The notes under the pieces: model-generated
The model's database searches: none
Seen by the model: the letters and a program-made list of their open reading frames with translations, nothing else
What the model was told of the DNA's origin: nothing
Position numbers and translations under genes: made by a program
DNA from: a virus
Lineage: Duplodnaviria > Caudoviricetes
Direction: 5' to 3' (one strand)
Virus record (IMG/VR): IMGVR_UViG_3300005077_000061
Location: 1-35,435 of that record
DNA length: 35,435 nucleotides
Part shown: one piece after another, positions 443 to 34,603 of the stretch
How positions within the stretch are numbered: position 1 is the first letter of the stretch
Layout of the letters: each line of letters begins with the position of its first letter

Positions 443-1942
443 ATGACACAACCGCCAATTCATCAAATGGGTGAATCATGGTCTACCCTGATTACTTCGG
501 GTGATATGCCACAAGAATTAAGGCTTAAAGGTATAGACGAAGGAACCAGGTTGCATTTTTTGACACGTGACATATCCAAATTCTCGCATTTTATTCATAC
601 GAGATTCCCTAAAACCAGAAAAGTAAGTGACAGGGTATATCGTGTAATGGAGATGGATGAATTTGATAGATATTATACTGTCAAAATAGCATCAGCAGAT
701 GATTATCATAAGAAATTTGGATTATCGAATGCACAGGCTGCACAGATACAGCCACAAGACATATTGTTCTGTAAGAATATTTTTGCTACAATTAAGTACG
801 AAGATATGGTTGCAGGTCAGGTATATCCGGCAAGCGGAGGGACTCAGGGAACAAATATAGGGCCCGATTTAGGATATGATGTAGGTGGTAATCCGACTGA
901 AGTATTATATTCTCGAACTAAAGGCCCGGATGATAACGGAGAATATTTTACTGATTACGAACAGATAAAAGTAACACAGGTAGAAAAACCTGATTCAGCA
1001 GGTGATGGCTATGCATATGTCCATGTAGAGAGGTATTATGCAGGCCCTCATTCTCAAGATAAAGGCGGTAAGCTTGTTAACCGTGCATTAGTTAATACAG
1101 GGATTACTACTTATGTTACAGATGCAGCTTTCCAAGTTGGTGACATTTTGTTACGTGGCACGCCTACATTTCTTGAAGGTACTCAGGCCCCAAATGGTGT
1201 ATATAAAAATCCTGAATCGGATAATAATTTTACACAGGAATTTAAGTATGCTGCCGAGAAAACACGTGAGTCTGATATTCCTAAATTAAACATCAAAATG
1301 AAACCAATGGATATAAATAAGCATCTTGTTTCAAGAAGGATGAACAGGGATATAGACGTAGCAATGTTATTCAATAAAAAAGGTATGACAAGCAGAGCCG
1401 GTAAGGAAGAATACATTGTAGGCGGTGTACATGAATTTATTATAAAAGACCCTTTGCATTACTTAATATATCAGGGTAATTCTTTATCATGGCCCGGCTG
1501 GCTGGATATGGGTAAATCTATTTTCGGCCTTGGCGGTGGTGAAGAAAGGGTAATATGGACATCGATTACTGTTGATGCAGAACTTCGAAAAATGTTTTAT
1601 AACGATCAGCACATGCGTTTCAATCCGTCTATGAGCCAAAAGTTCAATATGGAAGTTAATTCAATTGTGGTATCTGGCGGAACTCTTCATATCATACCTA
1701 TGCAGATAATGGAAGAATCCGGTTTCGAATCTGAAATGATATGTCTTGACATGACAAAACCTGATGCTTTTGAACCTGTAACAAACGAAGGATGGGATAT
1801 GTTTGTCGATAAAGGCCCTAATGGAAGAGGTATACAGGAGCCGGGTGTTATGATTTACAAAGAGCAGATTATCGGCATGAAGGGTTTAATGAGAAGATAT
1901 AGGCCATATCATTGTATAATAGATTTATCAACAGTAATTTAA
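443..1942 (+). CDS. Major capsid protein, HK97 fold, SU10-MCP/DUF5309-like
   Basis: 499 aa with AGGAG SD. Contains an E-loop-like segment (RVYRVMEMDE), EGTQAP..NFTQEFKY resembling the EG..A...N.TQIF motif, RDIDVAMLF, GGVHEF, and C-terminal KEQIIGMKGL. Long beta-rich insertion after the E-loop. Confidence 0.8.
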   Translation: MTQPPIHQMGESWSTLITSGDMPQELRLKGIDEGTRLHFLTRDISKFSHFIHTRFPKTRKVSDRVYRVMEMDEFDRYYTVKIASADDYHKKFGLSNAQAAQIQPQDILFCKNIFATIKYEDMVAGQVYPASGGTQGTNIGPDLGYDVGGNPTEVLYSRTKGPDDNGEYFTDYEQIKVTQVEKPDSAGDGYAYVHVERYYAGPHSQDKGGKLVNRALVNTGITTYVTDAAFQVGDILLRGTPTFLEGTQAPNGVYKNPESDNNFTQEFKYAAEKTRESDIPKLNIKMKPMDINKHLVSRRMNRDIDVAMLFNKKGMTSRAGKEEYIVGGVHEFIIKDPLHYLIYQGNSLSWPGWLDMGKSIFGLGGGEERVIWTSITVDAELRKMFYNDQHMRFNPSMSQKFNMEVNSIVVSGGTLHIIPMQIMEESGFESEMICLDMTKPDAFEPVTNEGWDMFVDKGPNGRGIQEPGVMIYKEQIIGMKGLMRRYRPYHCIIDLSTVI

Positions 1943-4778: not shown

Positions 4779-5005
4779 TGAATTGTAAATATTTATATAA
4801 TGGAAGATGTTATAATAATAAAAGGATTGAAAATGCAAAGTTTTTTAGAAGAATTAATAAGATTGATGGAATCCCAACAACAAAAAATTGCAAAGACTGT
4901 GAATACAGAGACGAAGCTAAAACCAATCCAAATGTTATTATTACAGCACGCAAAAGAACATCTTGGAAACAAGGAAATATCGGGCAACAGGGGTTGGGCT
5001 TCTAA
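4778..5005 (+). CDS. Possible small basic Cys4 protein overlapping the amidase gene
   Basis: TAATG-coupled to the upstream stop, with AGGGG about 8 nt upstream. Cys pattern is C-x7-C...CxxC. Most of it overlaps the CHAP ORF in another frame, so it may be spurious. Confidence 0.4.
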   Translation: MNCKYLYNGRCYNNKRIENAKFFRRINKIDGIPTTKNCKDCEYRDEAKTNPNVIITARKRTSWKQGNIGQQGLGF

Positions 5006-5546
5006 AACTTTTCAAAAAGCAATGTCTGCTGCCGGATGGTATATGAAAGCTCCTTGGTGTGCATTCTTCCAATTATATTTATGGAAATTAGTATTTGCTA
5101 TAGTATGGCCTGATGACTATATGTTACAAAAAAGAATAAAAAAATTAGGTTCGGGAAGTTCAAAAAAGTTATGGTTTAATTATAAAGAATCGACTGATTT
5201 TAATACAGGAAAAATACCTGCGATTGGTGCAGTAGCAATATGGAACTATGGCAAAATAAAAGGTGATATTATTAAATTGGGGGCACATGGACATGTAGAT
5301 GCCTGTGTAAGCGAAGTATATGATGCTGAGAATTTCAAGTCTATTGGCGGTAATGTTAATGATAGAGTATCCGAAAGAGTAAGAGACACAAGAAATCATA
5401 ATAATACTATATTCTTAGGATTTATTTACCCCCCAGGTATATCAGAAGAAACAGCCAGAATACAATTATTAATATCACAACAGAACAAAGACAGAATGAC
5501 TATGGAACAGAATAAAGATAATCCTACATTGGAAGGAACGAGATGA
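4833..5546 (+). CDS. CHAP-domain peptidoglycan amidase/endopeptidase (endolysin candidate)
   Basis: PWCAFF (Cys codon 5058-5060), PAIGAVAIW, GHVD (His codon 5292-5294), SIGGN and LGFIYP form the CHAP signature. AAAGGA SD at 4821-4826 favours ATG 4833 over 4800. Confidence 0.85.
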   Translation: MQSFLEELIRLMESQQQKIAKTVNTETKLKPIQMLLLQHAKEHLGNKEISGNRGWASKTFQKAMSAAGWYMKAPWCAFFQLYLWKLVFAIVWPDDYMLQKRIKKLGSGSSKKLWFNYKESTDFNTGKIPAIGAVAIWNYGKIKGDIIKLGAHGHVDACVSEVYDAENFKSIGGNVNDRVSERVRDTRNHNNTIFLGFIYPPGISEETARIQLLISQQNKDRMTMEQNKDNPTLEGTR

Positions 5547-12115: not shown

Positions 12116-13342
12116 ATGGGAACTTCGATAGATACAAGGATAGGCGGTGGTGGTTCTGGAGATGCTACATCTATATGGGATAATGCTATAGCCGAACCTG
12201 AATCGGGTGATGATGAGGCTTATCTTTATTATGATCATGATACTAATACATTTGGTTACAAAGTACCATCAGGTGCTGCACATGACAGGCAGCATGCAAT
12301 AGATTCTACAAGTGACCATACGAGTACTATAACAGAAAACAATATCATCAGCGCTAATGCTAATGGTCTACCAGACGATTCCGGAATATTAAAAACTAAT
12401 GTATTTAATAAAAGTACTGATGACCTTGATGATATTAGCAATGGTACTACTTATGTTAAATCAGAAAATAATTTTACTGATACATTAAAATCAAAATTAG
12501 ACGGTATTGAATCTGGTGCTACTGCTGATTTGTCCGGTTCAGAAATAAAAACATTATATGAAAACGAATTAAACACTAATGCTTTTACTGATACTTTACT
12601 GTCAAAACTGAATGGTATTGAAGCGAACGCAACAGCGGACCAAACTGGTTCTGAAATTAAAACACTGTATGAAAACGAATTGAATACTAATGCTTTTACT
12701 GATACTTTGCTGTCAAAATTAAACGGAATAGAAGCGGGTGCTGACGTGACAGATTCAACTAATGTCAATACGGCTGGTGCAACTATGAATGCTGATAGTG
12801 ATATATCTGGATGTTCATGGTTTCTTGATGAAGATGATTTTTCAAGTAATTCAGCTACAAAAACAGCATCACAGCAATCAATATTAGCAAAATTAGTATC
12901 GTACGTAGCAGCAAATGCAATATCAAGTATATTAGCTGATACATCCCCACAATTAGGCGGTAATTTAGATATTAATGGCAAGGGGATTACAGATGAAGTT
13001 ACAGCAGGGGAATCAATAACAGCAAATAATTTATTATATTTTAAAGCAAGTGATGGTAAATTCTGGAAAACAGATGCAAGTGCAGAAGCAACAGCAAATA
13101 CACAATTGGCAATAGCCATTGACAGTGGTTCTGCTGATGATACTATAACTGTACTTATATATGGTAAGCATACAACAACAGGATTAACAGCAGGTACACA
13201 ATACGTCAGTGAAACGGCAGGTGCAATTACATCAACTAAGCCTACAACTTCAGGTGCAATACAGAGAATTATCGGCTATGCGCACAGCAGTACATCATTA
13301 TTCTTTTGTCCTTCCGGTTATTATCAAGAGGTGACAACATAA
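12116..13342 (+). CDS. Tail/head fibre protein with 37-aa shaft repeats
   Basis: KL[DN]GIE..ATAD..GSEIK repeats, DTSPQLGGNLDING fibre motif, and a C-terminal domain (AGESITANNLLYFKASDGK...GLTAGTQYVSETAGAITSTKP) common in phage fibres. Confidence 0.75.
   Translation: MGTSIDTRIGGGGSGDATSIWDNAIAEPESGDDEAYLYYDHDTNTFGYKVPSGAAHDRQHAIDSTSDHTSTITENNIISANANGLPDDSGILKTNVFNKSTDDLDDISNGTTYVKSENNFTDTLKSKLDGIESGATADLSGSEIKTLYENELNTNAFTDTLLSKLNGIEANATADQTGSEIKTLYENELNTNAFTDTLLSKLNGIEAGADVTDSTNVNTAGATMNADSDISGCSWFLDEDDFSSNSATKTASQQSILAKLVSYVAANAISSILADTSPQLGGNLDINGKGITDEVTAGESITANNLLYFKASDGKFWKTDASAEATANTQLAIAIDSGSADDTITVLIYGKHTTTGLTAGTQYVSETAGAITSTKPTTSGAIQRIIGYAHSSTSLFFCPSGYYQEVTT
12473..12746 (+). repeat. 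About 2.5 tandem copies of a 111-nt (37-aa) coding repeat
   Basis: TTTACTGATAC (FTDT) recurs at 12473, 12584 and 12695, exactly 111 nt apart. Copies 2 and 3 differ mainly at synonymous sites. Confidence 0.9.
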
Positions 13343-15611: not shown

Positions 15612-17345
15612 ATGTCACAGATTAGCCATAGCAATAACCGTTCCGATCACATGCAACAGTTACAAATAACTGATGACCAGAGGAAACAACAAATAGCCGA
15701 TAATATTAAAAGAAGAGCCATACAACAGGCCATGGCTAATCAATTAAGAGAACAAATGGCATTCAATAAAAATCAATTTTTAGGTTCAGAAATAGATATT
15801 GACCAATATGGTGGTATTACGGGAAATGAAAGATTTAAAGAAGTATTAAGTTATATGAAAAATAATGCTGATTTATCAAGGCTTGGTACAGGTACAAACA
15901 CAGTGGCTAAAGAATATAGAGACAATGCACAAATGGCAAGTGATAAAGCATCTGAATTAAGACAAGAATACAATAGTGATCCAAATCTTAAAAACAGCAT
16001 CAATTATTCTGATTGGCTTAAACAAAGAGGGATGAATGCAGACTTATTAGGCGAAATAAATAAAAGATTAAATGAAAAGAAAGATAATATTCCTTCCAAT
16101 GTACCACCGGTTACAGAACCACCAGCTACTACACCACCCGTTACGGAACCGCCGGTTACTACACCGCCCGTTACGGAACCACCGGTTACTACACCACCTG
16201 TAACAGAACCTCCTGTTACAGAACCTCCTGTAAAACAGCTATCTGATACAGATGTAAACAATGATGGTGAACCTGATAAAGTTACTGATAACCAACAATC
16301 GGATAATGACAATCTACCCGGACAAGCTGCTCCAAGCGATAAAGAAAGGAAAAAACTGGAGAATGCAGGTTCAATGGGAGGGCAAGAAAAAGAAATACCT
16401 AAGAGAGCAAGTGAAAGCAAAAGTAAATCTAACAGCGAATCTGAATCATTGCAAAAGAATTTTGAAGTGGGAACAACTTATGACCAAGGTTCAGTAAATG
16501 TAAATGCTAAAAATGCTGTAAAATCAACAACGTTTAAAGACCCTGTTTTTAGAGATGAAATAAAAACATCGCTGTCTGATTTAGCTACATTAACAGGATT
16601 GGAGCAAGCAGGCAATATGATGGGTGAATCATACGGAGGCGGAAAGGTATACGCTTATAAAAACATGTATGATACGAGAGCAAAAAATCTTGACGATTAT
16701 AATAAAGCAATGTCAGAAGCAGGCCGAACTGAAATAATTGACCCCGGACAGGTATCGTATAATGTAGATGGTAAAAAGATAAGTACATCACAAAGAGAGG
16801 GCTATGCATCATCATCTTCGACATCGAATACATTCAGTTCATCTAGTAATTATGGAGATGGTAGTGCTAGAGGTAGTGGTAGTGGTAATAATGACAGAGA
16901 AGGTGATGAAATAATGTTAATGGGACTTGGCGGAGGTGAAGGAAATACAGGTACAAGATTGAAGAATGGCTACATACAATTAAAAACGAGCAATAAAACC
17001 ATTAATATGGATAGTTTCGTCGGTCCGGTTTCTATTAAAACTCATTCTGAGAAATTTGTAGAATTCAATAAAATTGAAGGAGTAAATGCAGTATGGAATA
17101 GTGCTGCTAAAAAAGGTGTAATAACATTTTATCACGAAGGTGATGAAAAAAGAGGCATACCTGCAGGTAAAAAGACATGTATAGTAACAATGACGCCTGA
17201 CGGTAAAAGTACATTATATAACAAAGATGGCATATTGCCTCCATTTATACATGGCCCGGTAGGTTATTCGTTCAAACATAAAACTGTCGGTGGCTATGGC
17301 AATGCTGACTCGTCTATACAAAATAATGATGCATTAACACAATAA
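15612..17345 (+). CDS. Putative ejection/cargo protein with Pro-rich repeat and low-complexity linkers
   Basis: AAGGA SD favours ATG 15612 over TTG 15567. Q-rich helical N-terminus, PPVT[ET] repeats, S/G-rich linker and small beta-rich C-terminal domain. Confidence 0.55.
   Translation: MSQISHSNNRSDHMQQLQITDDQRKQQIADNIKRRAIQQAMANQLREQMAFNKNQFLGSEIDIDQYGGITGNERFKEVLSYMKNNADLSRLGTGTNTVAKEYRDNAQMASDKASELRQEYNSDPNLKNSINYSDWLKQRGMNADLLGEINKRLNEKKDNIPSNVPPVTEPPATTPPVTEPPVTTPPVTEPPVTTPPVTEPPVTEPPVKQLSDTDVNNDGEPDKVTDNQQSDNDNLPGQAAPSDKERKKLENAGSMGGQEKEIPKRASESKSKSNSESESLQKNFEVGTTYDQGSVNVNAKNAVKSTTFKDPVFRDEIKTSLSDLATLTGLEQAGNMMGESYGGGKVYAYKNMYDTRAKNLDDYNKAMSEAGRTEIIDPGQVSYNVDGKKISTSQREGYASSSSTSNTFSSSSNYGDGSARGSGSGNNDREGDEIMLMGLGGGEGNTGTRLKNGYIQLKTSNKTINMDSFVGPVSIKTHSEKFVEFNKIEGVNAVWNSAAKKGVITFYHEGDEKRGIPAGKKTCIVTMTPDGKSTLYNKDGILPPFIHGPVGYSFKHKTVGGYGNADSSIQNNDALTQ
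16104..16232 (+). repeat. 15-nt coding tandem repeat, (PP[VA]T[ET]) x 8 plus PPV
   Basis: PPVTE PPATT PPVTE PPVTT PPVTE PPVTT PPVTE PPVTE PPV, 129 nt, locally C-rich. Confidence 0.95.
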
Positions 17346-17354
17346 GGGAATGAT

Positions 17355-20300
17355 ATGGGTGACGATCTTCAGTTCAGGCATAAAAAATCAAATATGGGTA
17401 ATTATTATGAAGATAATAGTGATGATTTACAATTAATACATAAAAATGATAAATTTAAAAAAAATTCAGTAACAGAAAAAGAAAAACAATGGTTTTCGGA
17501 TAAAGCTATAATAAAAGTAAACAGGCCTATTAGTACTAATAACCCATTAGATATAAATGCGATTACAGGAAGTATAGCAAACAGTGTCGTCTCGGGGTTA
17601 AGAAAAGAAGACCAAGAACAGTTTAGGCCATATTTGCAAAGAACAGCTAAATTAAACCAATTCAATAATGCAGATAAAAATAAATTCGTGTCATACATGG
17701 ATAGCAAATCTGATAAAATCAGTAAGATTGTTGGAAGCGACCCTACAAAATTTGACAATGATATATTGAATTATTTAAAAAAGAATCCTGATGATGAAGA
17801 AGTAGCTGATTTTTACAAGTCGTATAATTCTGACGATGGCAACTGGGATGAAACAATGCACCCTGACAATTATTTCACTTCAAAGGAGAATAAAACCCAT
17901 TTTTTAAACATGGTGTACCATAAGAAGCATAAGCAACAAAATGTTCAAAATAGCGGCGTTTCTGGAGCGATTAAGAACATTCAGCAAACAGCACAAAACA
18001 TTTCTTCTAATATAACGAATAAAAATATACAACAACCTGCTGATAAAGAAAAAAGTGCAATAGAAACATTGTACGGTGTAGTACAAACTGCTATACCTGA
18101 ATTAAAAAACACTAAATTTGATGATATTCCTAATCATGCTCTAAAAGCACTCAAAGAAGGTAGGGATTTATATAATAAAGATTATATGAATTCATTATCA
18201 CCTAAAGAAAAAGATTACATGATTGAATTATCTAAAAATCCTCATAAGCAAAACAGTAAAGAATGGATAAAATACAATGATATAGCCCGTGACAAGTTTA
18301 TGAAGAACCTTGAAAATGTCATGGATAAAGATGAATATGATAATTTAATCAAAACCAAAGAAAGCATAAAGGAGCAAATCAAAGAATTAGAAGCTGAATT
18401 CAATAACAGCAGAAGTATGTTGTCATTTATGCCTGTTTATTTTGATACTATGAACTATGCAGAAATTGCACCTGAAGAATTCAGAAAATTCAAATCAGAA
18501 AGAACAGGCAAGACTTTAATTGATTATGAAAAAGAATTGGAGAAAATTGAAAAAGCAGAATACATTGACCAATATTATATATTGAATGACAAAATTAGAC
18601 AATTCCAAGAACATTATTTCGATATAAAAGATGGTAAAATATCATGCAAAGACCCTAAAGCCATAGATGGATTAATAAATACAATTTTAACAGAAGGTTC
18701 ATTGCATGTAGGAAGAAAAAAGTGGGATAGGAGTAATTTTACTAATTATTTTGGGGAAACATCTGGTATAGCTAAGCAAATAGGAGAATCATTAGCGCCT
18801 GAAACATGGTATGAAGGTTTGGCTAAATATTCTGGTCCGGCAGGTCTCGGTATAACAACATTATTAGATTTTAAATATAAAGATGTACTACCTCATGAAA
18901 TGCAAGATTTTCTTGGTGTATCTGATTTCGAACCGGGCGAATTGGAATATTACAATTATATTAATACTAAAATAACAGAATTGAAGCAAATACAATCTCA
19001 TTTAAATAATTTCGGTAAAATAGATTTTAGTAAAAAGGATACCGGCGTATCCGGTGTAATAAGAGACATCGGTTCGTCATTATTTCGTGGCGCTACTGAT
19101 TGGGCCGATGATAAGATGAAAAGATTATGGTATGGGAATAATATCATTGATAAAGATATTGTATTTTCTAATAATATAGATACCAATATAGATGCTGCTA
19201 ATTATTTAAATCTTGCAAGATATAGTAATGCTGATATATTACAATCAACGCAGGGTTTATTATATAATATGGCAGAGAATAATGTAATTAGTCCTGAAGA
19301 ACTCAATAGCATTATAGAAGAAGGTGACTGGAAACGTACCGCTGTATTGTTTGGAGACAGAATAGGCGATATGATACCGGATTTAATTGTAGGCGGGTTC
19401 AAGATAGGAACGAAAGCTGGCGAAATGGTAGGTTCAAGGATATTAAATACAGCAGAAAAATTACGTGAACAAAATAATATAAAAAAAACATTATCATATA
19501 TTGATGAATTTAATGCTATAGATGATGTACCGCATATAGTTAATTTTAGAAAAAAAATGGGAATGTTTCTAAACCCGAAGGGGTATTTCCAATCATTAAA
19601 AGGCAGAAATGCAGAAGAAGGGATTGAAATAGCATCTGCATGGGAAATGGCTAATCCTATTTTGTCAACATCAAGAATATCCGGTGGTATGCTTGGAGCA
19701 ATGTTGTTTCGAATGGACCCTAACATGACAATCGAAGAAGCTATTGAAACAACTAAATCCGGTATAATGTTTGGTGCATTGACGTCTGCATTAGGAACTT
19801 ACTTTACTAATGGTGCAAGAAGTTTATCATTACAATCAAAGAACATAAATAATTTATCAAGAATAAATAAGATAAATGGCATTAGTGAATACCAAGCTGC
19901 AATAAACAAGAATATGATTACACTAAATACTGTCGGTAATACTTTGGGAGGCATAACCGGCACCACAGGTATTGGAAAAGTAATAGAGAATTGGTTTACT
20001 GGCGAAGAAGCACCGCCTGATTTTAATAATGAAGTTTTCCTTGAATTAGCGACAAATCTTGTTTTTTCGACACAGGAAGCCATGCATACAGCTAAATACG
20101 GAAGTGGCTTAAAAAAGATAAAAAAGATAAGGGATATACAACATGTAAAACATGAAAAGAAACTTCTTGACAACATCAATATTGATGAAACAAGTAATAT
20201 CGTAAGCATCATAAGTGATATAGAAACAAACAAAAGGAGCGGAGCACAATGGGAAGGTGACAAGTATGCAATTGTTGAAACCGTAGAAACAGGTGAACAG

Positions 20301-23300
20301 ATAATGCGCCGCTATGCTAATAAGGAAAACGGCGAACAAATAACGGTAGGAGATTTATTACACATAAAAAAACTTGTAAAAGGGAAAAAGAATTGGCCAG
20401 TTAAAAAAAGAGCAAAAGAATTTCTTGATAATTTGATTGAAAACAATAAAGATATGCCAATTGATTTTAAAGATATTGGCGATAAACATGCAGGCCAGAT
20501 AGATGCTGAAACGGGTAGAATTACAATCAATACAAGATTGTTTGACCCATACAATATGGACCCGTTAATGTCAGAATCAAATGCTGTTGATAGAATCATT
20601 TATGTAATGAGTCATGAATTGGGCCATAAGCCATTGATGGACGCATTTAATTCCGGTGACACTGAAACAATAACAAAATTGTCCAAAATATATAATGATT
20701 TTGTTGAGATGTATTACAACAACGATGGTGAAGGAATTGCATTAAAAATGAACAGCAATAAATTGAATTATGTCTTAAAATCCATGATGAATGAAAACGG
20801 CAAGATACCATATTATAATGTTGAATCTCCAACAAATGAACAAAGGTTAGTATTAGAAGAATTTTTTGCTCAAGTCAACGATTTGTCTATACCTGTATTC
20901 CATAAATATCTTAACAGAATGGGCATGAGATATAAGAATAACTCTATTGGTTCTGTCATGAATAACATGCGTAATTATATATTAGAAAAAACAGGGGCAA
21001 GTGAATATGTAAGAAATTATACTAAATCTGTAAATGATGCATTATTAGCATCATACGAACCCAATAGAATACAAAACACAGAAGTGTTAGAACACATAGA
21101 TAACAGTATCAGAAACATGAATATGAATTTCATTACCGATTCTTATAATAAAATAGAATTCAACGAATCAGTAAAAGAACAAATTGGCCGGGCCGTTAAA
21201 AACTATTATAAAACAGCAAGTATGGAGAAAAAACTGGAAAAACTTAACAAGCCTGTTACTATGTTTATAGATGATTTTATTAATAAGTATGGCGAAGATA
21301 TTACTAAATCACCTGTATTTGGGAAAGAACTAATCAAATATATAAAGAATGAAACTGATTTGTTAAGACAACCGGGGCAAAACAATCAAGCATATAATAT
21401 TCAGGATATATTGAGGGATTTAGATGAAAACGACCGTATTGATACTGAAACTGATTATAACGATATTAATTACACTCAAAAATACAAGTCAACTGATCCT
21501 CACATTAAAGAACTTCATCAGAGATTGGGCATTGAAAACACGTCGGACTTCAAAGAAAGATTTATTGGTAAAAAATCTGAGGAAATTTTCGAGGACGTAC
21601 ATAACTTACTTCAAGAAAAATATTCCGAAGAGATGAATGCTGACAAATTATTCAATTATGCCAATATTTTATCATTAGAATTATCTAATATGAAAACGGC
21701 TGAACCGATTCATTTGGATATAAATTTAAATGGTGAAGCATCTGCCACGCTATATATCAATGATAATGCTGCTGATTTCACACAAACCGACAATGTTATC
21801 GTCGAGCCTGTATATAGTAAGAATTATTGGGAAACAAGAACAAAATATTTTGACAATAAAAATTGGAATCAAAACTACAGAAATGCCATATCACATTTTA
21901 ATGAAGCTAAATATTCTAAGGTAGTAAGTTCTAAAACATCATACACTAATGATAGCAATAATTTAAAAACAAAAAGAGGGCACGGATTAACAGTTGATAT
22001 GCTGAAAAATAACGATACTAAATTATCATTATTTGAAAAGGGTTATTTTATACCGCCTAAGGAGAGTGGTTCTTTAATGTTCAAGATGCCCAAATCATTT
22101 AAAGCAATGTTAGCAACCAATACACCGGAACAATTACTTAAAATATCGAAATCAATTTTTCATTCAAATTTCAAAAGATTCTTATTATCAGATAACGTAT
22201 GGAATGGCTTATCAGATGGCAAAGATTTAATGAATAGAATAAAAAATGAATATGGCGTTATGAATTTTGATGAATTATACAAAGGAATAAAAAGCGAGGA
22301 GATGGACTATACGAAATTGTTTCCTAAAGCTGATAGCGATATAATTAATAAAAATAAAGATAATATTGATTCAATGATAATGCCATTTATAGAAAAGGGT
22401 AAAAAATATTATGATGATTGTGATGACCACCCATTAAACTGGGATGTTGAAGAACTAAAAAAAGACGGTGACAAAGAATTACGCAAACAAGCAATAAAAG
22501 CATTACATGCTGCATACAATGACACATGGCATTGGTCTCTTGACAATTCAGGCCAATCAAGAATGTATAACGATAAAGGTTCACAGAGAGAAACTGGTAA
22601 ATTATTTGAAAAATACATGAACGTCCACATGGGTAATTCAGCACGGAGAATGGCAAGCGGCAAAATATTTGAAACATTTATCGAAGGATTCGCAAAAGTT
22701 GATGATGTACAGGAATATTTACAAGGCAAAAACATAGTTAAAGAGGGCGATGATTATTTTATAAATAGCATGTTGTATAATCCTATAATGTTTGAACGAG
22801 CTGGCTTATTAAAAGGGCATTTTGATAAAGACCCTACAGATGGTGGTGCTTATGTATTTGATGATATAACGGAAGTATTGGATGCAATTAACGGAGAAGA
22901 ATCTGGTGTTATATCAATGTACAAACCCAAAGGTTATATAATAGATAACAACAACAATACAGTAATGCTAAAAGGTGCATTCCACAGATTGGATAAAAAT
23001 AAATTTACAGATAATTGGTCACGGGAATTTCCGGAATTTTTGGATAAATTTAAGTCACAAATATCATTAATGATACCTAACACTATGACAAAATCCGGAA
23101 ATTCATTTACCACGAATGTAAAGGAAATTCCCGAACTTAATATTAAAGTCGGTATCAATAATGCAGGTGAAATACTATGGACATCAAAAGACGGAATCAA
23201 AAAAGACACTAATAAGGAGATGATAGATGGTGTATATGATTATGCAATAGAGAAATTACAACAAGGGATAGTGCCTGACTTTATGAAATTGAAAATACCA

Positions 23301-26300
23301 TTAACCGGCAACAATGCTATAATGTTTGATACACCGTCACATCCGCTTGCAAAACCGACCAAACTTGCATTTGGGATAATGGACATACCTTACACCGTCT
23401 CAGAGAATGGTTTTTTTCAAGGCGAAACCGGAATGGCAGCAAGAGAAGCCATAAATAATTTGAAAAATAATCTTGTAAATAAGTATTATAAAAACATAAA
23501 AACCATAACATCGTTAAGAAATATCTTCAGAGAAGGAAAATATAATGTATCAGAATCAATTAATAAAGAAATAGGGACATTTATTAATGATATATTTACA
23601 GATTATATAACAAATGCTGATGATATGACATTGTCTAAAGTTACTAAATTAAACAAATCATCTGCACTGAATTTATTAAAAAGTTCAGTTTTGGACGGAC
23701 AGTTTCAACATGAATCATTCCCTAAATTATTAATGTATTTTCCTGATTTATTTGCTTCAAAACCACAAGGTAAGTATAATCCAGGTGCAGGCCATAATAC
23801 TACATTAGCAGATATGGTAGCAAATGAAATAGATAATTGTTTAAAAATGCGTACAACAGGAGCTACATTAAACCTAACTATTGAGAATAACACAAAAGCT
23901 AATATATTAAATGGTGCGCATTATAGTTATCATTCTTTAGTTGAGAACAATAAACGTTTATCAGATGAAACTAAATCTAAATCATTAAAATATTATTCAA
24001 GATTAGCACAAAGTTTATTAAATGAATATATAGACCCTAATACAGGGCTTTTAAAGGACTATTCCAACGGGATAATAGTATCAACTGACTATTTAGATGT
24101 AATGAACAAAGAACGCTTTAATAAGGGCTTAAAACCGCTGCAAATAGGCAGTAGGGTTCTTGGTGTTCGAACACCTGTAGATGGCCCTGATAGCATGGGA
24201 GCATTTATGATAGTAGGTGTATCGGAAAAGAAAGGCACAGTACAGATTAATCATAAGATGGGTATAGAAGTATTCGGAACAGACTATGATAAAGACGGAT
24301 TTGGATTGAAAGCAGATGATACTGAACTTGTAGAAAAAGATTTTAATGCAATATATGATTATTGGTTGAATTCGGGCGTTAATAAAGGCATATTGAAAAG
24401 CGATGCTAAATTGATGGCACAAGAAGAAAAAGAATTTAATGGAACTAATTACACGTTCCCGTCTAAATATGGCTTAAAAGAAGAAAAATATGATTATAAA
24501 CCGCAACAATTAAACCATTACGACGCTGCTGTTGGTGCATTGACAGGAAAGTCAGCAGCAATATCCAGAAGAACATTAATAGCAAGGGCTTTTGAAAATC
24601 TTGGTAAAAACGAATACGACATAATAAGCGGGCCATATAAAATAAAATTAAAAATCAACAATGAATGGACAGAGAAGAACGGAGTAAAATATAATATATT
24701 TTCATCATTATCAAACTATATAACACAAAAATCTGTTGATATAAATAACCAAAAAAATATAGCACCGGATAATGCTATGTACGATATGATTATTGATAAA
24801 GTTGAAATAAACAGGCCATCTGAAGAACAATCAGCAAACATGAATATTGATTATATGAATAATCCCTCATTGTATGGGAGAGTCCATGCTGCAATACAGA
24901 AGGAATTAACAAGAATTGCTGAATTTGATGTAGGTAAAGCAGAAAAATATACTAACAGAAACAGCTTGATGTATGATGCAATGTTTGAAAGCAGGCATAA
25001 AGATTCTTATCCTAACAATATCAATTCATTATTATATGATAAGGTAAATAACGATTACAGTAATATATTTTTGGGAGGGGATAAAAAACCTTATAGTACT
25101 GAAATGTTAAGACACAACATAAATGGAGAAATCAATAAAAGCATTATTGATATTAAAGATGAAAGATGGATAGATACTAAATTATTAACCGCCGATGATA
25201 TTAACAATATAGATATTGTAAAGAATAAAATTAATCGTTTATATTGGTTTATATCAGATAGAACTAAATCAAAACTATGGCGTAGTGGCAAAAAAGACGA
25301 TACATACGCAGAAAAAAGAGATATTTTTGATGAATTTAAAGCAGTAAAAGCAAGTAAAGAGAATAAATTCAAAGGAGTATATCAGACAAATGACCCGTTT
25401 GATATTGGCCTTGCCGATATGATAACAAGATATTATACTAAAAACGGATATTTAACAGATAAGGATATAATAAGGCAGTTGAAAAACGGGGATTTGATTA
25501 AATTTGATAAAGATAGTGGCTTGTTAAAGCATATAGTTAACAACGAAGTAGTTCATAAAACACGCATTAATAAAATATATGATGCTAATGGAAAAAGATT
25601 AGAATGGATACCTGATGAATTTATATTGTCGAATGACCAGCCGGGACGTATTTTAGGAGATATATTCGATAAAAAAATGCCACCAATGTCTAAAGATAAT
25701 CAAATCGAAGATATGGTATGTGACATGATTGACCATGCAATGAAAACAAAATATTCAGGGAATATATCTGAATCAAAAAAAGCAGCAATTGTTTCTTATA
25801 TGGCATTATCAGGTTTAAAAGGCAACCATGGGTTTAGTTCTACAATGCTTGGCTCAGGTTATAATAAAGGTATGTTAATTAATCCTTTGATGAATTTCAA
25901 TATAAATAAACATGTACAGGAAACTAAATATAAAAATGATATAAACAAAATAGCACAAGTAGCAAAAAACCATAAAGAAAGAAAAGAAGCCTATATTGAA
26001 CAAAGGAAAAAAGACTTTATGGATACGAGTGAGGAAGGTGCTATCTTTGATAGTGATGTATTTATGGAAAATGAAACTGCCGGATTAATATCGACAATGG
26101 CTATTAAATTAAATAATAAAGGCTATAAATTATATGTACCATCAGAAAAAGGAATGAGTAATATCCATAGCGTAATCAACAATATTAGCAAAAACTATGG
26201 TAATATGCTACAAAATAGCGAAATAACTGTCAATAAAAATTACATGCCAATGCGTAATATAATACCTGAAAGAGAATTGTCAATAAATAAGAAGTCGATC

Positions 26301-29300
26301 AACAAGCAAATGGGTATATTATTAAAAACAGGCAAGGAAAGCGGATTTAAAAATGAATTATACAAAATGAATAAAGACGAATTTTTTAGATGGACTAATG
26401 AAATATTAAAGAATTATTCGGTAATACCAGCATTTAAAAACATAGCCAAAAAATCCGGCTTCGAAAAGAATAGCCCTGAATATAACGAAGTGATGGACCA
26501 GGTGAATGTCTTTATGAGAGGTTTTGTAGGGAATCATTACGAAGCAATGCATAAATATTTTACTAATTCATTAACAGGTGACAGATACGTTAATCCTCAA
26601 TCTGTAGTATTTGCATTGCAAACATTAAAAAACATACAGGCGCAGCCAATATATAACAAATTTTTCCAATATGCAGGTTATCATTCAAGAAGAGCGAACA
26701 TGGTGATAGATGCTGCATCAGATGTAAGAGATAAAGACAATTATAATTCAATGTATGAAATAATGAAATTATATGATGTAACCAATAAGGGGCATACTAA
26801 CAGCAGAACATCATATAATATTGGTGATATAATAGAAACAAACACAAGCACCCAGTCACCTTATCATTTTATGAATAAAAATCAGATTAATTATATAATA
26901 CCACATAATTATATAATGGATACTAAGGATGCTGTATTTGGTGCATTAGCAAAAGCAAGCGACCATTTCAACAAAAACAGAAATAAATATAACTCTCTTA
27001 ATATGACTATAAAAAACGGTGTTGATATTATAGATAATAAGTATCAAGAATTAAGGGATATTATAGATTTCCAAACAGAATTTAGCAGGGGAAAACCTTT
27101 AACAGGGAAAATAATAATAAAAAATGCAATAGATAATGAAATGGCCGGAAATAGTGCTTACGATGCCTTATTAAAAAAAGATTTATCCGAAAACGATATA
27201 ACAGACCAAAACATTAAAGATTTCGTTGAAAGTACGATTAAAGCATACGAAACAGTTCACGGCGGGATAAAAGAAAAATATGATAATGACTCTATCAATG
27301 AATTTGCGTCAGCGTTTAAGGCTTATGCAGTATTAAAATTAAACTTTTCAAAAGCGGCGGATACTATGATGTCAATGGCATCAATGATAGCTGATAAATA
27401 TGATAAATGTACAGATGAATATAATCGTGGCCATATATTAACTTCAATAAAAGAATTGAAAAAATTCAGCAAGTTATTTTATGAAGCTGATTCAAAGACT
27501 ATGAGAAACATGTCAAGAGAGTTTTATAACAAAAAAGGCAACATTGATGTTCTCAGTGAATTAATAGGAGGATACAATGAAGACATGCAAAACGTAGCAG
27601 GCCAGGAGATGAACGAAAATAGCATATTTTATAATAAAGAAGCACATGATAAAGCATTACATATTGCAAGCGCAAAAATGGCTAAATTCAAAGGCTATGT
27701 AATTGGTACGAACGAAAGAGACCCTAATCCGGTTATAATGTATGGTAAAAGCATGTATAACAAGGGGATGGATAGGAATGATATTATTTTCAATATGGCC
27801 AAAATGCTTAATATGGGGAATAATAAAAAGAAATTAAGCGAATTGAAATTAACACCTGCTAAAATGGCAATTAAAATGTATTCGGCAATAGCTAATCATG
27901 ATATGATAGCAAATACTCACGGCGGATATATGTATAATATCTTAAACAGTATAGGTGCAAAAGGGTTCGAAAGGCCGTATCATACCCTTGATAACGTTGA
28001 TAAACGTGAATTCGAATCATTAGCAAACAACATAGTAAAAGACAAGATTGATAATATAATGGATTACCAGACTAAGTTACAAACTTATCAGCAGGGTAAT
28101 AAAAGCAAAATATATTGGCATCATACAGATATGGCAAAGGCAGATAAATTCTTTGAATTTAAAAAAGAAGATGATTTTGCCTACAATATAGATGCTTACG
28201 ATATTTTTGAACATTATATAGAAAGAAAAGAAGGTAATGAAGAAATCAACACTGATGAAATGTTCAGATATGATAATGTAATAATCAATAACAAAGTCGA
28301 ACAAATGTTTAAGCAGGCATTAATGCCTTATGAAACAGCAATGAGAAACGAATACCTTAAAAACCCTGACAAGAACGAAATATCACATCAGGTAATATTA
28401 GGTGAATTATCTACAATAGCGGGTAAAGAAACATTATTTAATAAAAGAATAGACCCACAAGTATTCCATGATGTATTAGACAAAATACCGGAGAACAATA
28501 AAAAGATTGCTGTAATGAATGAATTAAGGCCCGGCACTGACATTAATTTATCTTATATACATGGCGATAATATTGTTGATTATACCAATTCTAAGCAAAT
28601 GAAAGGGCCGAAAATGTTTAATATGACCGGTAAAATATTAGGCCTGCTCCAACCGGAAATAAAAGATATGACAACATATGACATGAACCCATATTCAGAT
28701 GCAGAATTTAAAACGGCTAATCCATTGCCTAACGAAAGGTATATAGCAATGTTAGGTACAGGCAGCAATAGTAATAAATTGTATGTAATAAATATCGATC
28801 ACGTAGTAGATTTGTATTCAGGCACTCCTTATAGTAAAATTGACAAAAGTATAGCTAAACATACTAATAAGGTAATGAATAAACACGCTTCTTCTTTATT
28901 AACTGAATTGCATGATAACGCAGATTTTAAAAATACTGAATATACAAAACATTTAAGGGAGTTACTTGGTGAGCTGCCTGAACAATTCAGCTTTAAAAAC
29001 AAAGAAACCAATGAATACAAGACAGTATATAATAATAGCAGAACAATTAAAAACAATGCTACTAAATTACATAAAGAAATAATCCAGATAAAAACTGATA
29101 ATAAAAAAGGCCTTGCAAATAAATTGAAAAAATTCCATAAATTCTACAATAAAATGCAAGCATGGGAAGTGTACCAAGGCGGTAAAAATGTTATAGAATT
29201 ATTAGCAGGGGCAGCGATAACCCCATTTGAACCGAATATCGGAACAAATTTAATGGTAGATGCTGCCGGCAAAATAGTAGGAAGAAACATTAAAATAGTT

Positions 29301-31435: not shown

Positions 31436-31659
31436 CAAGTGCTGAGATTAAAGATAAGGTAACGAACTACATGTCTTATTCTGTCGGTATATTAAGCGCA
31501 ATATATGGCATTATATCGATATTTGGCATTAATGTAGGCGAAGACATGAAAGAAGTAATAATAATAGCAGTTGAAGTGGTAATAACACTTGCAGTAATTG
31601 TTATAGGCTTTTTTACAGGTAAAAAAACAATTGATGATACAATGAAAATAAATGAATAA
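31432..31659 (+). CDS. Putative class II holin (two TM helices)
   Basis: 75 aa with AAAGGA SD. TM1 YSVGILSAIYGIISIFGI, TM2 VIIIAVEVVITLAVIVIGFF, charged C-terminus. Confidence 0.6.
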   Translation: MTSAEIKDKVTNYMSYSVGILSAIYGIISIFGINVGEDMKEVIIIAVEVVITLAVIVIGFFTGKKTIDDTMKINE

Positions 31660-33550
31660 AAATGATGACATATTGGTAGAAGTATGTGATAATACTGCTT
31701 CAATAGATAATTATAAAGAACTTGGGATTTTTAAATTTGCTAAACTCCACTTTCCAAATAATTTCTCATCTGATTTCGCCCAATTGCATTATGAAATGAC
31801 AATGTTATTATTCAGATTATTAGACCCAACAGTTACAAAGAGGACCGAAAGGCAATCGTATTTTGTAGTACACAGGGAAGCTGCAAAATCAACTGTCGGG
31901 TCATTTTTATTTCCTTTGTATTTGACTTATTTAAAAGGGAAAATAATAATAGTAAAAAGAAAACAATTGAAAAGAGTCGATGATTACGATTATGAAGGCA
32001 ACTGGATAGGAATAGGAGACCCTGATGAAATAATAAAGATACCAATAAATGAGAATTTTATAGTTATAGTATCTAAAACAGCATCTTCAGCAGAAGATTT
32101 CGTTATGGACATAAAAAACACTATAGATAAAAGAGCGGACCTTGCAAGAATATATGGTGAAAAAAATCCTAAATATATAGAAATTGATGATGATGACAGC
32201 CTGCCTGAAAGACAGGGGGATAAGAAATGGACTAAGCAGTTATTTATAACATCTGATGGCACTGTAATTAGAGGGCTGGGAACGAATCAGGCAGTAAGAG
32301 GCAGAAAAGTTAATAATAACAGGCCTACATTGATTATAGCTGATGATTTATATGATGAAGAAAATGTTAAAACAGAAGACAGAAGGAAAAATATAGAAAA
32401 ATGGTTTTTTAATGCATTAGTCAATAGTCTTGATGCTGATAAAGGCAAGATATTGTTTTTAGGCACTATAGTCCACCCGGATACAGTTATTAATACAATC
32501 ATGAAGTTATATAGCTGGTATGGTATAATAAGGCCTATAATCAGCATGGAAGAATTGCAGAGAGCAGTTCAGTATGTAAATAACCTAAACGGTTTTTCAT
32601 CAGAATGGTTATTAAAAAAAGAAAGCAAAAAAATATTATCAGAATATGAAGAAAATTTAGAAACATTATCTTGGCGTGATAAACATCCATTACATTATAT
32701 CATATCTTTATATAAAGAAAAATCAGACACGCATAATCTTAATTATTTTTATCAGGAGTACATGAATGAACCAATAGCTCCTGAAAACAAAATGATTAAG
32801 GATGATGCGTTTATTGAGATACCATTAAAAATAACCAACGAAAAAGGTAAACAAAGGATAGAATTTGAAAGAGACGGCTATATATGGTATGGGCCTGTAA
32901 TTCTTGATATAGGTGTTGATATAGCATCAAGTATAGCAATGAAATCTGATGATACTTGCATAACATTGTCAGGCATGGCAAGATGCTGGCCTAAAATACC
33001 TGGGTACGATTGGTCAATGACGGCTAACAGGCTAAAAGAGGGTAAAATATTCCCAATATTAGCCCATATAGAAGCAGGGAAATATGCAATAACAAATTAT
33101 GAGAACCTACCCGGTATAGCTGAAGCAATTGAAAATTTGACAAAAATATACAAAATAAACAAGATAAAGATGGAAGCTAATGGGCAGCAGTTACAAATTA
33201 TAAGAGAATGTAGAAAATATTTAAAAGAAAAAAATATAAATGTTTCTATATGGGAAGAGTATTTTACGATTAAGAAATCTGAAAGAATATTGTCAATATT
33301 GCACCCAATTATACAAAATTATAAACACATATTATGCCAGCCCAATCCATTAATTAGGAAATTATATATACAATTGCTTCAGGTAGGGATTGGTGATCAT
33401 GATGATTTGCCTGACAGCCTAAGTATATCATTTAAAGATTATATATTCCCCGGTATTATAAACGATATAATAGACAATAAAGATAAGAGTATGTCAAGAA
33501 GCAATTATATAGTAAAAAAATTCGGCCATAACGCATGGAAATATTTATAA
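31652..33550 (+). CDS. terL: Terminase large subunit
   Basis: Walker A-like HREAAKST, VRG..RPTLIIADDL (Walker B), FLGT coupling motif, FYQEYMNEP, RNase H-like IGVDIAS..SDDT, MEANG and HDDLPDSL. Confidence 0.92.
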   Translation: MNKNDDILVEVCDNTASIDNYKELGIFKFAKLHFPNNFSSDFAQLHYEMTMLLFRLLDPTVTKRTERQSYFVVHREAAKSTVGSFLFPLYLTYLKGKIIIVKRKQLKRVDDYDYEGNWIGIGDPDEIIKIPINENFIVIVSKTASSAEDFVMDIKNTIDKRADLARIYGEKNPKYIEIDDDDSLPERQGDKKWTKQLFITSDGTVIRGLGTNQAVRGRKVNNNRPTLIIADDLYDEENVKTEDRRKNIEKWFFNALVNSLDADKGKILFLGTIVHPDTVINTIMKLYSWYGIIRPIISMEELQRAVQYVNNLNGFSSEWLLKKESKKILSEYEENLETLSWRDKHPLHYIISLYKEKSDTHNLNYFYQEYMNEPIAPENKMIKDDAFIEIPLKITNEKGKQRIEFERDGYIWYGPVILDIGVDIASSIAMKSDDTCITLSGMARCWPKIPGYDWSMTANRLKEGKIFPILAHIEAGKYAITNYENLPGIAEAIENLTKIYKINKIKMEANGQQLQIIRECRKYLKEKNINVSIWEEYFTIKKSERILSILHPIIQNYKHILCQPNPLIRKLYIQLLQVGIGDHDDLPDSLSISFKDYIFPGIINDIIDNKDKSMSRSNYIVKKFGHNAWKYL

Positions 33551-33563
33551 ATATATATTGTCA

Positions 33564-33600
33564 CTTACTTCTTCCCCCCCCCCTGCCCTTTTCCTTCCTT
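33564..33600. other. Intergenic polypyrimidine tract containing C10
   Basis: cttacttcttCCCCCCCCCCtgcccttttccttcctt, with the C run at 33574-33583. Strongly atypical for this AT-rich window. Confidence 0.9.
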
Positions 33601-33653: not shown

Positions 33654-33872
33654 ATGAATGAATATCGTATTGAAGACAAAGAAAAAATATTTACTGAAAT
33701 ATGCAGTGATATTGATTGTTGCGAAGATGACGAATTAAAACGTCATTATATGAAATGCTTTGATAAATATGGAGTCGATATACGACATTTTAAACAAAGC
33801 ATAATGGACATGGACCCGTACAAATTAGCGGATATGTATTGTGATATGAACCATAATAGGGTAGAATTATAA
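33654..33872 (+). CDS. Small acidic hypothetical protein
   Basis: TAAGGAG SD, 72 aa, D/E- and Cys-rich. TAATG-coupled to the next gene. Confidence 0.75.
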   Translation: MNEYRIEDKEKIFTEICSDIDCCEDDELKRHYMKCFDKYGVDIRHFKQSIMDMDPYKLADMYCDMNHNRVEL

Positions 33873-34603
33873 TGTTATTAATATATTCAAAAGCCGGAAA
33901 CAACGAAAGATATTACAAAGTATATGAATCTATAACCGAATTCCAGGAAAGTGACGACAAAAACAAATTAAACAAACTTGACCGTTGTGAAGAAGGTGAT
34001 TATATAATAACTGATAACGGCTATGTAGTACCTCTTATAAAAAAATATGTTTACGATTCAAATCCCAAGAATAAACATTATTTTGTAGATTTTGTATTTC
34101 CAAGAGCAAGGCACAGGGTGTGTTGTTATAATAGAAAATATTTTTTAAGAAAACCATTATTGTTTTTCAAAGAAAATATACCTAAACCAAAAAAAAAGAA
34201 TTTAACACATCAGATGCGGCTTTTCGCTATATATTTATCAAGGGGTATTGATATAGTTGATGCTTTTAAATTGTGTTATAAGGTAAGATACAGAAATTTA
34301 CATGTAGAAATAACAAGAATACTCAGTACAGATATATTTATAGATTATTTAATCAAGGAGTTAAAAATGCTGGATAAATTTAAAAATTCACTTAATGATA
34401 AAGGTGTGAATTATGACATGATAGCAGAATTTTACAAAAAGGAATTGAACAATGATAAGAACACGTTCGACCAGAGATACCAGATAGCAGAAAGAATAAT
34501 AGAAATTCATAGTATAGAAGACAAAGACACAGATAAAGAAGAAGACAACAGCTATCAGGCCAGATTGCTCAAAAAACACTCTAAAATCGACTGCAACAAT
34601 TAA
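33872..34603 (+). CDS. Putative terminase small subunit-like HTH protein with N-terminal extension
   Basis: LTHQMRLFAIYLSRGIDIVDAFKLCY...ITRILSTDIFIDYL resembles the TerS HTH pattern, followed by oligomerisation-like helices (GVNYDMIAEFYKK...DQRYQIAERIIEIH). Confidence 0.5.
   Translation: MLLIYSKAGNNERYYKVYESITEFQESDDKNKLNKLDRCEEGDYIITDNGYVVPLIKKYVYDSNPKNKHYFVDFVFPRARHRVCCYNRKYFLRKPLLFFKENIPKPKKKNLTHQMRLFAIYLSRGIDIVDAFKLCYKVRYRNLHVEITRILSTDIFIDYLIKELKMLDKFKNSLNDKGVNYDMIAEFYKKELNNDKNTFDQRYQIAERIIEIHSIEDKDTDKEEDNSYQARLLKKHSKIDCNN

Follow-up and report, generated by a model that had tools for sequence, protein, structure and literature searches.

A putative virion-packaged two-barrel RNA polymerase that may draw one active-site basic residue from either of two places

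Layout of the locus

The window, that is, the whole stretch of 35,435 nucleotides analysed here, is DNA of an uncultured phage. Its largest gene is a 4480-aa open reading frame (ORF), the product of which is called P0001 (Table 1); homologues of P0001 are 4,009–5,379 aa long. Relatives carry two genes of similar size to the cargo-like pair at the same spot upstream of the giant gene, some of them weakly similar, and the order capsid, tail, two cargo-like genes, giant gene, terminase is common to all four complete genomes that were read. The HExxH signature was seen in 6 of 14 giant proteins of the family and is present too in genomes read later, and a profile search with the zincin-motif region gave no match. 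A segment with a Kyte-Doolittle value of at least 1.5 was found in 12 of the 14 giant proteins tested, in 11 of these 12 within the C-terminal fifth.

Table 1. Features of the giant gene and its surroundings (positions in the window).
Feature	Position	Strand	Evidence and remarks
Major capsid protein, SU10 type	443..1942	+	PF17236, E 8e-11
Two cargo/ejection-like genes, 220 aa and about 580–590 aa	14938..17345	+	Directly upstream of the giant gene; putative function
Giant protein P0001	17355..30797	+	ORF calling; zincin motif, two-barrel RNA polymerase core (predicted) and conserved C-terminal region
HELGH zincin-like metalloprotease motif, aa 1087–1091	20613..20627	+	Motif only
K1749 and K1753-Y1754	22599..22616	+	Conserved 20/20; likely counterpart of the QDE-1 helix before DPBB1 (R671)
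Predicted two-barrel polymerase core, aa 1751–2480	22605..24794	+	AlphaFold2; end-to-end alignment with QDE-1 673–1138 and gp66 892–1638
D1829-G1830, likely second-metal Asp (QDE-1 D709 type)	22839..22844	+	D 19/20; putative role
N-terminal-barrel lysines K1857, K1873, K1913	22923..23093	+	19/20, 19/20, 21/21
Catalytic double-psi beta-barrel (predicted), aa 2167–2321	23853..24317	+	Model residues 417–571 match isolated DPBB domains, Z 8.1, 1.9 Å, 83 residues
R2272-T-P2274-V-D2276, Pro-gate loop	24168..24182	+	P 21/21, D 19/21, R/K 10/21; R swaps
G2308-T2309-DYDKD catalytic loop	24276..24296	+	T2309 position is K/R in 11 relatives without the gate residue
V2461-D2462, trigger-loop VD	24735..24740	+	V 19/21, D 20/21
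Hydrophobic segment near the P0001 C-terminus, possible membrane helix	30252..30308	+	Kyte-Doolittle 1.83
Terminase large subunit	31652..33550	+	phrog_38, E 7e-49

Motifs of the core and their conservation

The original prediction placed a hidden single-chain two-barrel polymerase at 22800..24760 on the basis of six motifs, all of which are present in the ORF where it had put them. DPTDGGAYV starts at aa 1826 (D1829 at nt 22839), YKPKG at aa 1856, LKGAF at aa 1872, VRTPVDGPDSM at aa 2271 (R2272 at nt 24168), FGTDYDKDG at aa 2307 (DYDKD at aa 2310–2314, nt 24282–24296, the single D-x-D-x-D in all of P0001) and QKSVDINNQK at aa 2458 (S2460 at nt 24732). The range encloses these six but leaves the conserved K1749 and K1753-Y1754 just outside, and K1913 had been overlooked. 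The equivalence of the outlying residues to the QDE-1 helix is suggested by the ends of the alignment range and by PMC9508822.

Conservation was read from 21 aligned family cores with 15–31% identity to P0001, of which 20 are distinct and one lacks the N-terminal barrel; P0010, a fragment without the catalytic loop, was excluded from motif counts. Family members were collected through their similarity to P0001, P0012 and the terminase, which is not motif-neutral. The tabulation of homologues showed that conservation holds: D2310, D2312, D2314 and P2274 are each found in 21/21, and D1829 in 19/20. Two other motifs stood in part. The conserved lysine of YKPKG is the first (K1857, 19/20), while the second is K/R in 8/20 only; the trigger-loop motif likened to AVD..K retains its VD, but Lys at +3 after the VD occurs in none of the 21 cores. 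That the motifs exceed chance follows from this conservation and from the family profile, whose match in phi14:2 gp66 falls precisely on the R-I-P...DFDID stretch with 18.2 bits, against at most 6.0 bits in the controls (300 shuffles and one reversal).

At the sequence level, P0001 and its core had no match in Pfam, PHROGs or the PDB; PF05183 (eukaryotic RdRP) matched neither P0001 nor 13 core stretches, and for neither the core nor the capsid did tblastn against 50,697 phage records return a match. Several peptide-pattern scans brought up no relatives, and the two of them that covered GTDB genomes gave no host. The nearest named Atlas cluster lay at 0.81, which serves as a lead only.

Predicted fold

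A first model, built with ragged alignment ends, gave a pLDDT below 50 in the N-terminal barrel, low confidence upstream of aa 1751 and no Foldseek match at E<=1e-3. The AlphaFold2 model of aa 1751–2480 from a 15-row alignment reached pLDDT 75 and pTM 0.76. Searched with Foldseek against the PDB, it matched gp66 best (6vr4, E 1.5e-5), followed by QDE-1 (E 9.4e-4), and against BFVD it gave 21 matches at E<=1e-3, including giant proteins of cr50_1, cr130_1 and cr272_1. With VIA the highest score was obtained for QDE-1 (Z 13.0, 329 aligned residues, 4.1 Å), then P23-45 gp96 (Z 11.0), P74 gp62 (Z 10.4) and gp66 (Z 9.6, the longest alignment, with 461 residues at 5.6 Å); PolD scored only 5.8. Isolated DPBB domains matched the catalytic barrel only and none matched the N-terminal barrel. 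The second barrel, with D1829 and three conserved lysines in the same chain, is supported in the model by the whole-chain alignments to QDE-1, gp96, gp62 and gp66, which cover both barrels. The superpositions suggest that the motif residues would cluster round the metal site. At the level of predicted fold, the proposal of a two-barrel polymerase in one chain holds, with gp66 and QDE-1 as its nearest matches.

The lysine of the catalytic loop

The lysine at position 4 of DYDKD had been regarded as an unfamiliar departure from Gly that could mark a divergent lineage or a regulated active-site loop; the analysis gave no sign of regulation through this lysine. A non-Gly residue at this position is not new, because every crAss RNAP already carries Ile or Val there (bioRxiv 2020.03.07.982082). 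Position 4 among the 21 family sequences is K in 10, G in 6, A in 3, L in 1 and N in 1, with six changes on the family tree. As a lineage mark the lysine therefore holds for a sub-lineage but is not fixed; judged from the alignment, it is a sub-lineage trait at a free position rather than a fixed innovation, and of little importance in itself. The idea that it stands in for the absent trigger-loop Lys was rejected, since the latter is missing in 21/21 and the loop Lys is present in only 10.

In the supplement of PMC10770324, five PCH45-type jumbo-phage entries are given with DYDKD, and there are also DIDKD, DVDKD, DNDKD and DDDKD rows. DYDKD as an already-known catalytic loop was rejected on PCH45, one of the five: in its beta'-type ORF, taken as the listed accession on account of its length, DYDKD lies at residue 15, and the ORF contains a normal NADFDGD as well, at 419. 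A larger departure is the Arg swap in the relatives, which is invisible from the window alone.

One basic residue from either of two positions

The Arg of R-x-P is one of eight invariant residues of two-barrel polymerases, equivalent to E. coli beta' R425, yeast R446 and QDE-1 R962 (PMC2919709). The original prediction treated it as a standard motif, which is true of P0001 itself (R2272 kept, T2309 before the loop) but of only part of the family. Ten of the 21 sequences keep R/K in R-x-P, one of them as Lys rather than Arg, and have T/A/G/M before the first loop Asp; eleven have no R/K in R-x-P and carry K/R before the first loop Asp. Both or neither basic residue is found in 0/21. All five sequences found afterwards via the terminase fit the same rule, and the sister rows G006 and G009 (SH-aLRT 100) differ at both sites. 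It is likely, from the sequences compared, that the pre-loop K/R takes over the job of the missing gate Arg.

The chief rival accepts an active polymerase and takes the pattern for a phylogenetic accident, the gate Arg being dispensable and the pre-loop K/R doing something else. The trees require only two to three coupled switches (both later trees omit P0007, and the final one also G007, whose core is identical to that of G006, and P0029, which is near P0012), and in 44% of bootstraps an early tree was compatible with a single event. Yeast rpb1-R446A reportedly grows without defect (PMC2919709). Among 186,355 column pairs of a 16-row alignment, one more is a perfect K/R swap. However, an accident is less easy to reconcile with the absence of both-or-neither sequences and the fit of the five later ones, with the position of both sites in the same catalytic barrel and with the simultaneous change in the two sister rows. 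It is considered rather unlikely.

A published survey of phage RNAPs used the filter [RK]xPx{20,100}DxDxD (PMC10770324); of 13 family members compared with this pattern, 6 would not pass. If the swap is real, screens demanding this pattern overlook a class of polymerases. Natural sister enzymes with the basic residue at either place would also be a ready pair for probing the function of the Arg.

The phage group

Complete relatives have genomes of 54,195–57,165 bases, and all five terminase-found records searched carry the polymerase core. Crassvirales genomes are near 100 kb and encode a DNA polymerase of their own. The family matches PF17236, phrog_1328, 156 and 38, whereas phi14:2, the one phage used for the crassvirus comparison, matches PF23898, phrog_11589, 6547 and 6681; family profiles of 2–4 rows gave control-level scores on phi14:2 proteins. 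By these profile assignments, the capsid, portal and terminase of the group fall outside the phi14:2 families. A 13-mer repeat count gave no promoter motif common to the four complete genomes.

Proposed mechanism and alternatives

The best explanation overall, with a probability of about 0.8, is a likely packaged and injected two-barrel RNA polymerase with one basic residue from either place. The stretch of about aa 1750–2480 would be a single-chain, likely DNA-dependent enzyme, in which metal A would be bound by D2310, D2312 and D2314 and metal B with the help of D1829, and K1857, K1873 and K1913 would contact RNA and the phosphates of the NTP. To sense the ribose 2'-OH the enzyme would use R2272 of the Pro-gate loop, like R962 in QDE-1. 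In relatives without the gate Arg, the Lys/Arg immediately preceding the first Asp likely extends to the same place, which would leave exactly one basic side chain in the active site. The polymerase is likely packed in the phage head and likely ejected with the two neighbouring cargo proteins, after which it would transcribe early genes; packaging and injection are consistent with its position in the virion block, the cargo-like genes upstream and the zincin in the same chain. The zincin may cut the polyprotein, and, as has been suggested for gp66, a non-Gly residue at position 4 may bias the loop towards low activity until ejection.

An enzyme that is synthesised in the infected cell for middle or late transcription, and not carried in the virion, is improbable. 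Single-chain two-barrel enzymes of that kind exist, such as P23-45 gp64 (PMC10770324), and P74 gp62 is among the better structural matches, but the core described here belongs to a polyprotein of 4,000–5,400 aa, the gene for which follows cargo-like genes within the late structural block. A stand-alone form was not found among 7,994 candidates in a profile search of 616–2,000-aa proteins, which is weak evidence.

It is also improbable that the core is a degenerate, inactive fold, retained by the ejection machine for structural purposes or for pulling DNA. Such decay would suit the non-Gly loop, the missing trigger-loop Lys and the loss of the gate Arg in 11/21, and the non-Gly loop of gp66 was crystallised in a non-catalytic shape; yet gp66 is active despite its Ile (bioRxiv 2020.03.07.982082), and at 15–31% identity the Pro, K1913 and all three Asp of the loop never vary.

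A replication enzyme (a primase or PolD-like DNA synthesis) replacing a missing DNA polymerase gene is equally improbable: the four complete genomes have no non-structural ORF above about 460 aa and no typical DNA polymerase is apparent (PolA/PolB profile searches, which missed phi14:2 as well, are uninformative here), and half of the family lacks the 2'-OH-reading Arg, but the fold is nearer to QDE-1 and gp66 than to PolD, the gene sits in the virion block, P0001 keeps R-x-P, and a DnaB helicase, a recombinase and an exonuclease fit use of the host polymerase.

The broader statement, that an undescribed 54–57 kb phage group outside Crassvirales injects a two-barrel RNAP that works without the trigger-loop Lys/His, and in which a "universal" ribose-reading Arg, one of the eight, repeatedly changes place, from Pro-gate strand to catalytic loop or back, is held to be slightly better than an even bet.

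Comparison with known polymerases

From the alignments, the core would be a variant of the two-barrel polymerases, and the part that appears new is the either/or rule. The highest Z was obtained with QDE-1 of Neurospora crassa, which together with plant RDR2 (PDB 7Y7P, 2J7N, 7W84; PMC9508822) shares the single chain, the barrel order, a D709-like Asp, the R-X-P loop, the Asp triad and the trigger-loop V-D. QDE-1 is, however, a eukaryotic RNA-silencing enzyme with DYDGD, R962 and K1119, and lies outside any giant virion protein. Thermus phage P23-45 gp96, a tape-measure-fused virion RNAP compared alongside gp64/gp62 (PMC10770324), is likewise a two-barrel RNAP within a giant virion protein with a metallopeptidase. 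It differs in its DFDGD loop and in forming the tape measure of a long-tailed phage, one that has a second RNAP; no second RNAP was noticed in the complete genomes of the family, judged by ORF sizes and similarity.

The top Foldseek match, gp66 of Cellulophaga phage phi14:2 (PDB 6VR4), resembles the core in the spacing from the Pro to the first Asp (37 vs 36 residues), the nearly co-linear R-x-P to DxDxD stretch, a non-Gly position 4, the VD of the trigger loop, and its zincin and cargo neighbours, which are fused in some crAss phages. The gp66 protein, its zincin neighbour and the fused forms are virion proteins (bioRxiv 2020.03.07.982082). A domain that blocks the cleft, and self-inhibition, are further traits of the gp66 type. 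In contrast, identity in the structural alignments is 12–16%; position 4 is K/G/A/L/N in the family (Ile/Val 0/21) and I/V in crAss phages; and gp66 has VDNAK, the Lys of which the family lacks. Moreover, gp66 keeps R-I-P with Ser before its DFDID loop, whereas half of the family moves the basic residue, and the family phages are of 54–57 kb with other capsid, portal and terminase families. With this family, virion transcription of the crAss type would also reach phages that have another capsid type and genomes about half as large.

Predicted fold of the giant protein

The original prediction placed six motif strings of a single-chain two-barrel RNA polymerase in the ORF of P0001, the giant protein of the window, and every one of them is found where it was claimed to be. 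Searches of Pfam, PHROGs, PDB sequences and cultured phages gave no hit for P0001 or its core. The window, a virus record of 35,435 bases that CheckV rates as 64% complete, carries on one strand first the capsid gene (PF17236, E 8e-11), followed by genes for ring- and tail-like proteins and a tail fibre, then a pair of cargo-like genes, after these the giant gene and then the terminase gene (phrog_38).

Positions in the window and P0001, and motif sites in two relatives' genome records (G001, G002)
Feature	Location	Strand	Observation
Structural gene	3230-3985		Low-scoring profile match to gp083 (phi14:2 locus tag; 12.4 bits vs 2.4 in reversed controls); sole structural gene besides the polymerase with signal against phi14:2
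CHAP-like amidase gene	4800-5546		Within tail block; PF05257 E 0.002 (below cut-off), phrog_1259 E 2e-5; also conserved in G002 and G003
Tail-fibre gene repeats	12467-12742		phrog_24456; three 111-nt spaced repeats
PPVTE/PPVTT tract	16103-16252		Second cargo-like protein; encoded by 15-nt tandem repeats
Giant gene (P0001)	17355-30797	+	4480 aa
HELGH	aa 1087-1091		Zincin motif
DYDKD loop	aa 2310-2314		Sole DxDxD of P0001
Hydrophobic stretch	aa 4300
Ten-C run	33574-33583		Pyrimidine-rich gap 3' of terminase gene
Conserved post-terminase gene	33872-34603		233-282 aa across relatives, no profile matches; terminase strand in window and G005, opposite strand in L002, G001, G002, G007 and G008
GAAGAATAGCAAT motif	G002 10532, 11617, 12320	+
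GAAGAATAGCAAT motif	G002 29528	-
GAAGAATAGCAAT motif	G001 24645, 25736	+

The first model, built from 13 rows with ragged ends, resolved the catalytic barrel alone (pLDDT 54.7) and gave no Foldseek match at E<=1e-3; its VIA Z was about 10 against the plant enzyme RDR2 and against gp66, the virion RNA polymerase of the crAss-like Cellulophaga phage phi14:2. For the second model, which covers aa 1751-2480 and was built from 15 rows, pLDDT was 75 and pTM 0.76, with gp66 as the top Foldseek match (E 1.5e-5) and Neurospora crassa QDE-1 as the next (9.4e-4). VIA gave Z 13.0 against QDE-1 (329 residues, 4.1 A, model 6-730 on 673-1138), 11.0 and 10.4 against gp96 and gp62 of Thermus phages P23-45 and P74, 9.6 against gp66 (461 residues, 5.6 A) and 5.8 against PolD. 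BFVD returned 21 matches to this model at E<=1e-3, and several of them belong to cr-numbered phages. A model-independent 12-row family profile scored gp66 1317-1475 at 18.2 bits, with 301 controls at most 6.0. These comparisons support the two-barrel polymerase as the predicted fold.

Conserved motifs and the loop lysine

All 21 cores keep the Asp triad, P2274 and K1913; K1749, K1753 and Y1754 are each present in 20/20, and D1829, K1857 and K1873 each in 19/20. For QDE-1, PMC9508822 describes that D709 helps to hold cation B, that R671, R738, K743 and K767 touch phosphates, and that R962, D1116 and K1119 contact 2'-OH groups, the 3'-OH and the gamma-phosphate, respectively. The family lysines probably map one-to-one onto the phosphate contacts.

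The lysine at loop position 4 had been taken for an unusual variant. Among the 21 cores this position is K in 10, G in six, A in three, and L and N in one each; it switches six times on the tree, and P0012 (G) and P0029 (A), two family members, differ there despite 67% identity over that region. The gp66 preprint describes I or V in crAss enzymes, and an active gp66 whose loop nevertheless crystallised in a non-catalytic form (bioRxiv 2020.03.07.982082). Because the position varies freely and gp66 works with a non-Gly loop, the lysine is a sub-lineage trait rather than new chemistry; non-Gly loops are already known in virion two-barrel RNAPs. A full-text literature search for DYDKD, DFDKD or DxDKD together with "RNA polymerase" found no paper. 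DYDKD rows in the PMC10770324 supplement, considered as catalytic loops, proved to be an N-terminal motif in the one genome checked. Of the predicted AVD..K motif, the trigger-loop V-D (V2461-D2462) is kept, whereas a Lys three residues on occurs in 0/21 cores.

An either/or basic residue

K/R is mutually exclusive between position 2272, the Arg of the R-x-P Pro-gate loop, and position 2309, which immediately precedes the first Asp. In the gate type (10/21), residue 2272 is R (nine) or K (one) and residue 2309 is T, A, G or M; in the loop type (11/21), residue 2272 is N, L, V or I and residue 2309 is K or R. K/R at both sites or at neither was found in 0/21 cores. The rule was first seen on 13 sequences, and all those added later obey it, namely three more and five found via terminase (four distinct). 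Among 186,355 column pairs of a 16-row alignment there are two perfect K/R swaps, of which 2272/2309 is one, and four others with one mismatch.

The 13-row tree, with trait columns kept, needs two changes, and 44% of its bootstraps need a single one; the 15-row tree with them removed also needs two (a single one in 0/200 bootstraps). An 18-row tree from a quick search needs three, two forced by starred branches; in it the sisters G006 and G009 (SH-aLRT 100) differ at both positions. The trees are unrooted, with several long branches, and give no direction for the swap. An accidental covariation, which would be compatible with an active enzyme, is unlikely on our assessment. The R-x-P Arg is one of eight residues that PMC2919709 terms invariant across all two-barrel polymerases. 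No report of a replacement of this kind came up in literature listings, whose scope did not include the Supplementary Data 3 alignments of PMC10770324, the gp66 preprint's table image and supplementary files, or the journal article that followed it, all of which may bear on the point.

Relatives, genomes and host

Searching 1.84 billion representatives with phmmer yielded 13 proteins (E<=1e-3), P0001 among them; P0003, P0029 and P0030 came from word searches, and G001-G003 and G005-G009 from genome scans. Annotations give these members no name or "hypothetical protein", literature searches on the family found nothing, and it appears to be unnamed. The longer members P0002 (PF18760, PF12694) and P0030 (PF10686) carry extra Pfam domains, which we take to be ART-PolyVal, cpYpsA and YAcAr; such domains are characteristic of polyvalent injected proteins.

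The four complete relatives (54,195, 55,774, 56,215 and 57,165 bases) share the structural gene order, and each has a DnaB-type helicase and an exonuclease-like gene; none has a non-structural ORF above about 460 aa. The helicase-recombinase module lies on the structural strand in the complete genomes G003, G005, G007 and G008 and opposite to it in G002. Because the profile families of capsid, portal and terminase differ from those of phi14:2, the single crassvirus compared, these phages would not be filed in Crassvirales. AGGA precedes 16/23 window gene starts, counted by eye; such sites are seldom used by Bacteroidota, and therefore the host likely belongs to another phylum.

In G001 (L004) and G002 (L005, L007, L008), the palindrome GGTACC occurs throughout the records at 4-5 per kb (131 in 26.7 kb vs 4.8 expected), in all three frames and often just before start codons, and encodes 47/55 Gly-Thr pairs of the giant gene. 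The window and the other relatives counted have few copies or none. GGTACC resembles a highly iterated palindrome, although a literature search for it as such gave no match, and its abundance may point to host or methyltransferase. The 22-24-nt motif with the core GAAGAATAGCAAT sits 5' of small post-terminase genes and heads opposite-strand replication genes, never within the structural block of G001 and G002; no copy was found in either the window or G003. It is a candidate promoter for the polymerase of that clade.

Proposed mechanism and comparison with known systems

We put at roughly 0.8 the probability that P0001 is a polyprotein made late and packed in the head, which would be ejected after two cargo proteins and perhaps cleaved by its own zincin. 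Its predicted core would then transcribe early genes, with replication of the DNA left to host enzymes, and the ribose would be read by a single basic side chain, supplied by gate or loop. The motifs, their conservation, the synteny and the either/or pattern are direct observations and the fold is a prediction, while enzyme activity, packaging, cleavage and what the swapped residue does are inferred. Packaging is suggested by a gene context resembling that of virion proteins elsewhere. In phi14:2, gp66 and its neighbours, one with a zincin domain, are virion proteins, and in some crAss phages the gp66-type protein and those two neighbours form one fused chain (both from bioRxiv 2020.03.07.982082); in crAss001, two cargo proteins are packaged together with three proteins associated with the RNAP (PMC10172136). 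An enzyme kept out of the virion is very improbable, and a dead fold or a replication enzyme marginally more so.

gp66 is of the R-x-P type and keeps its basic residue at the gate; the swap and the absent trigger-loop Lys set the present family apart from known virion RNAPs.
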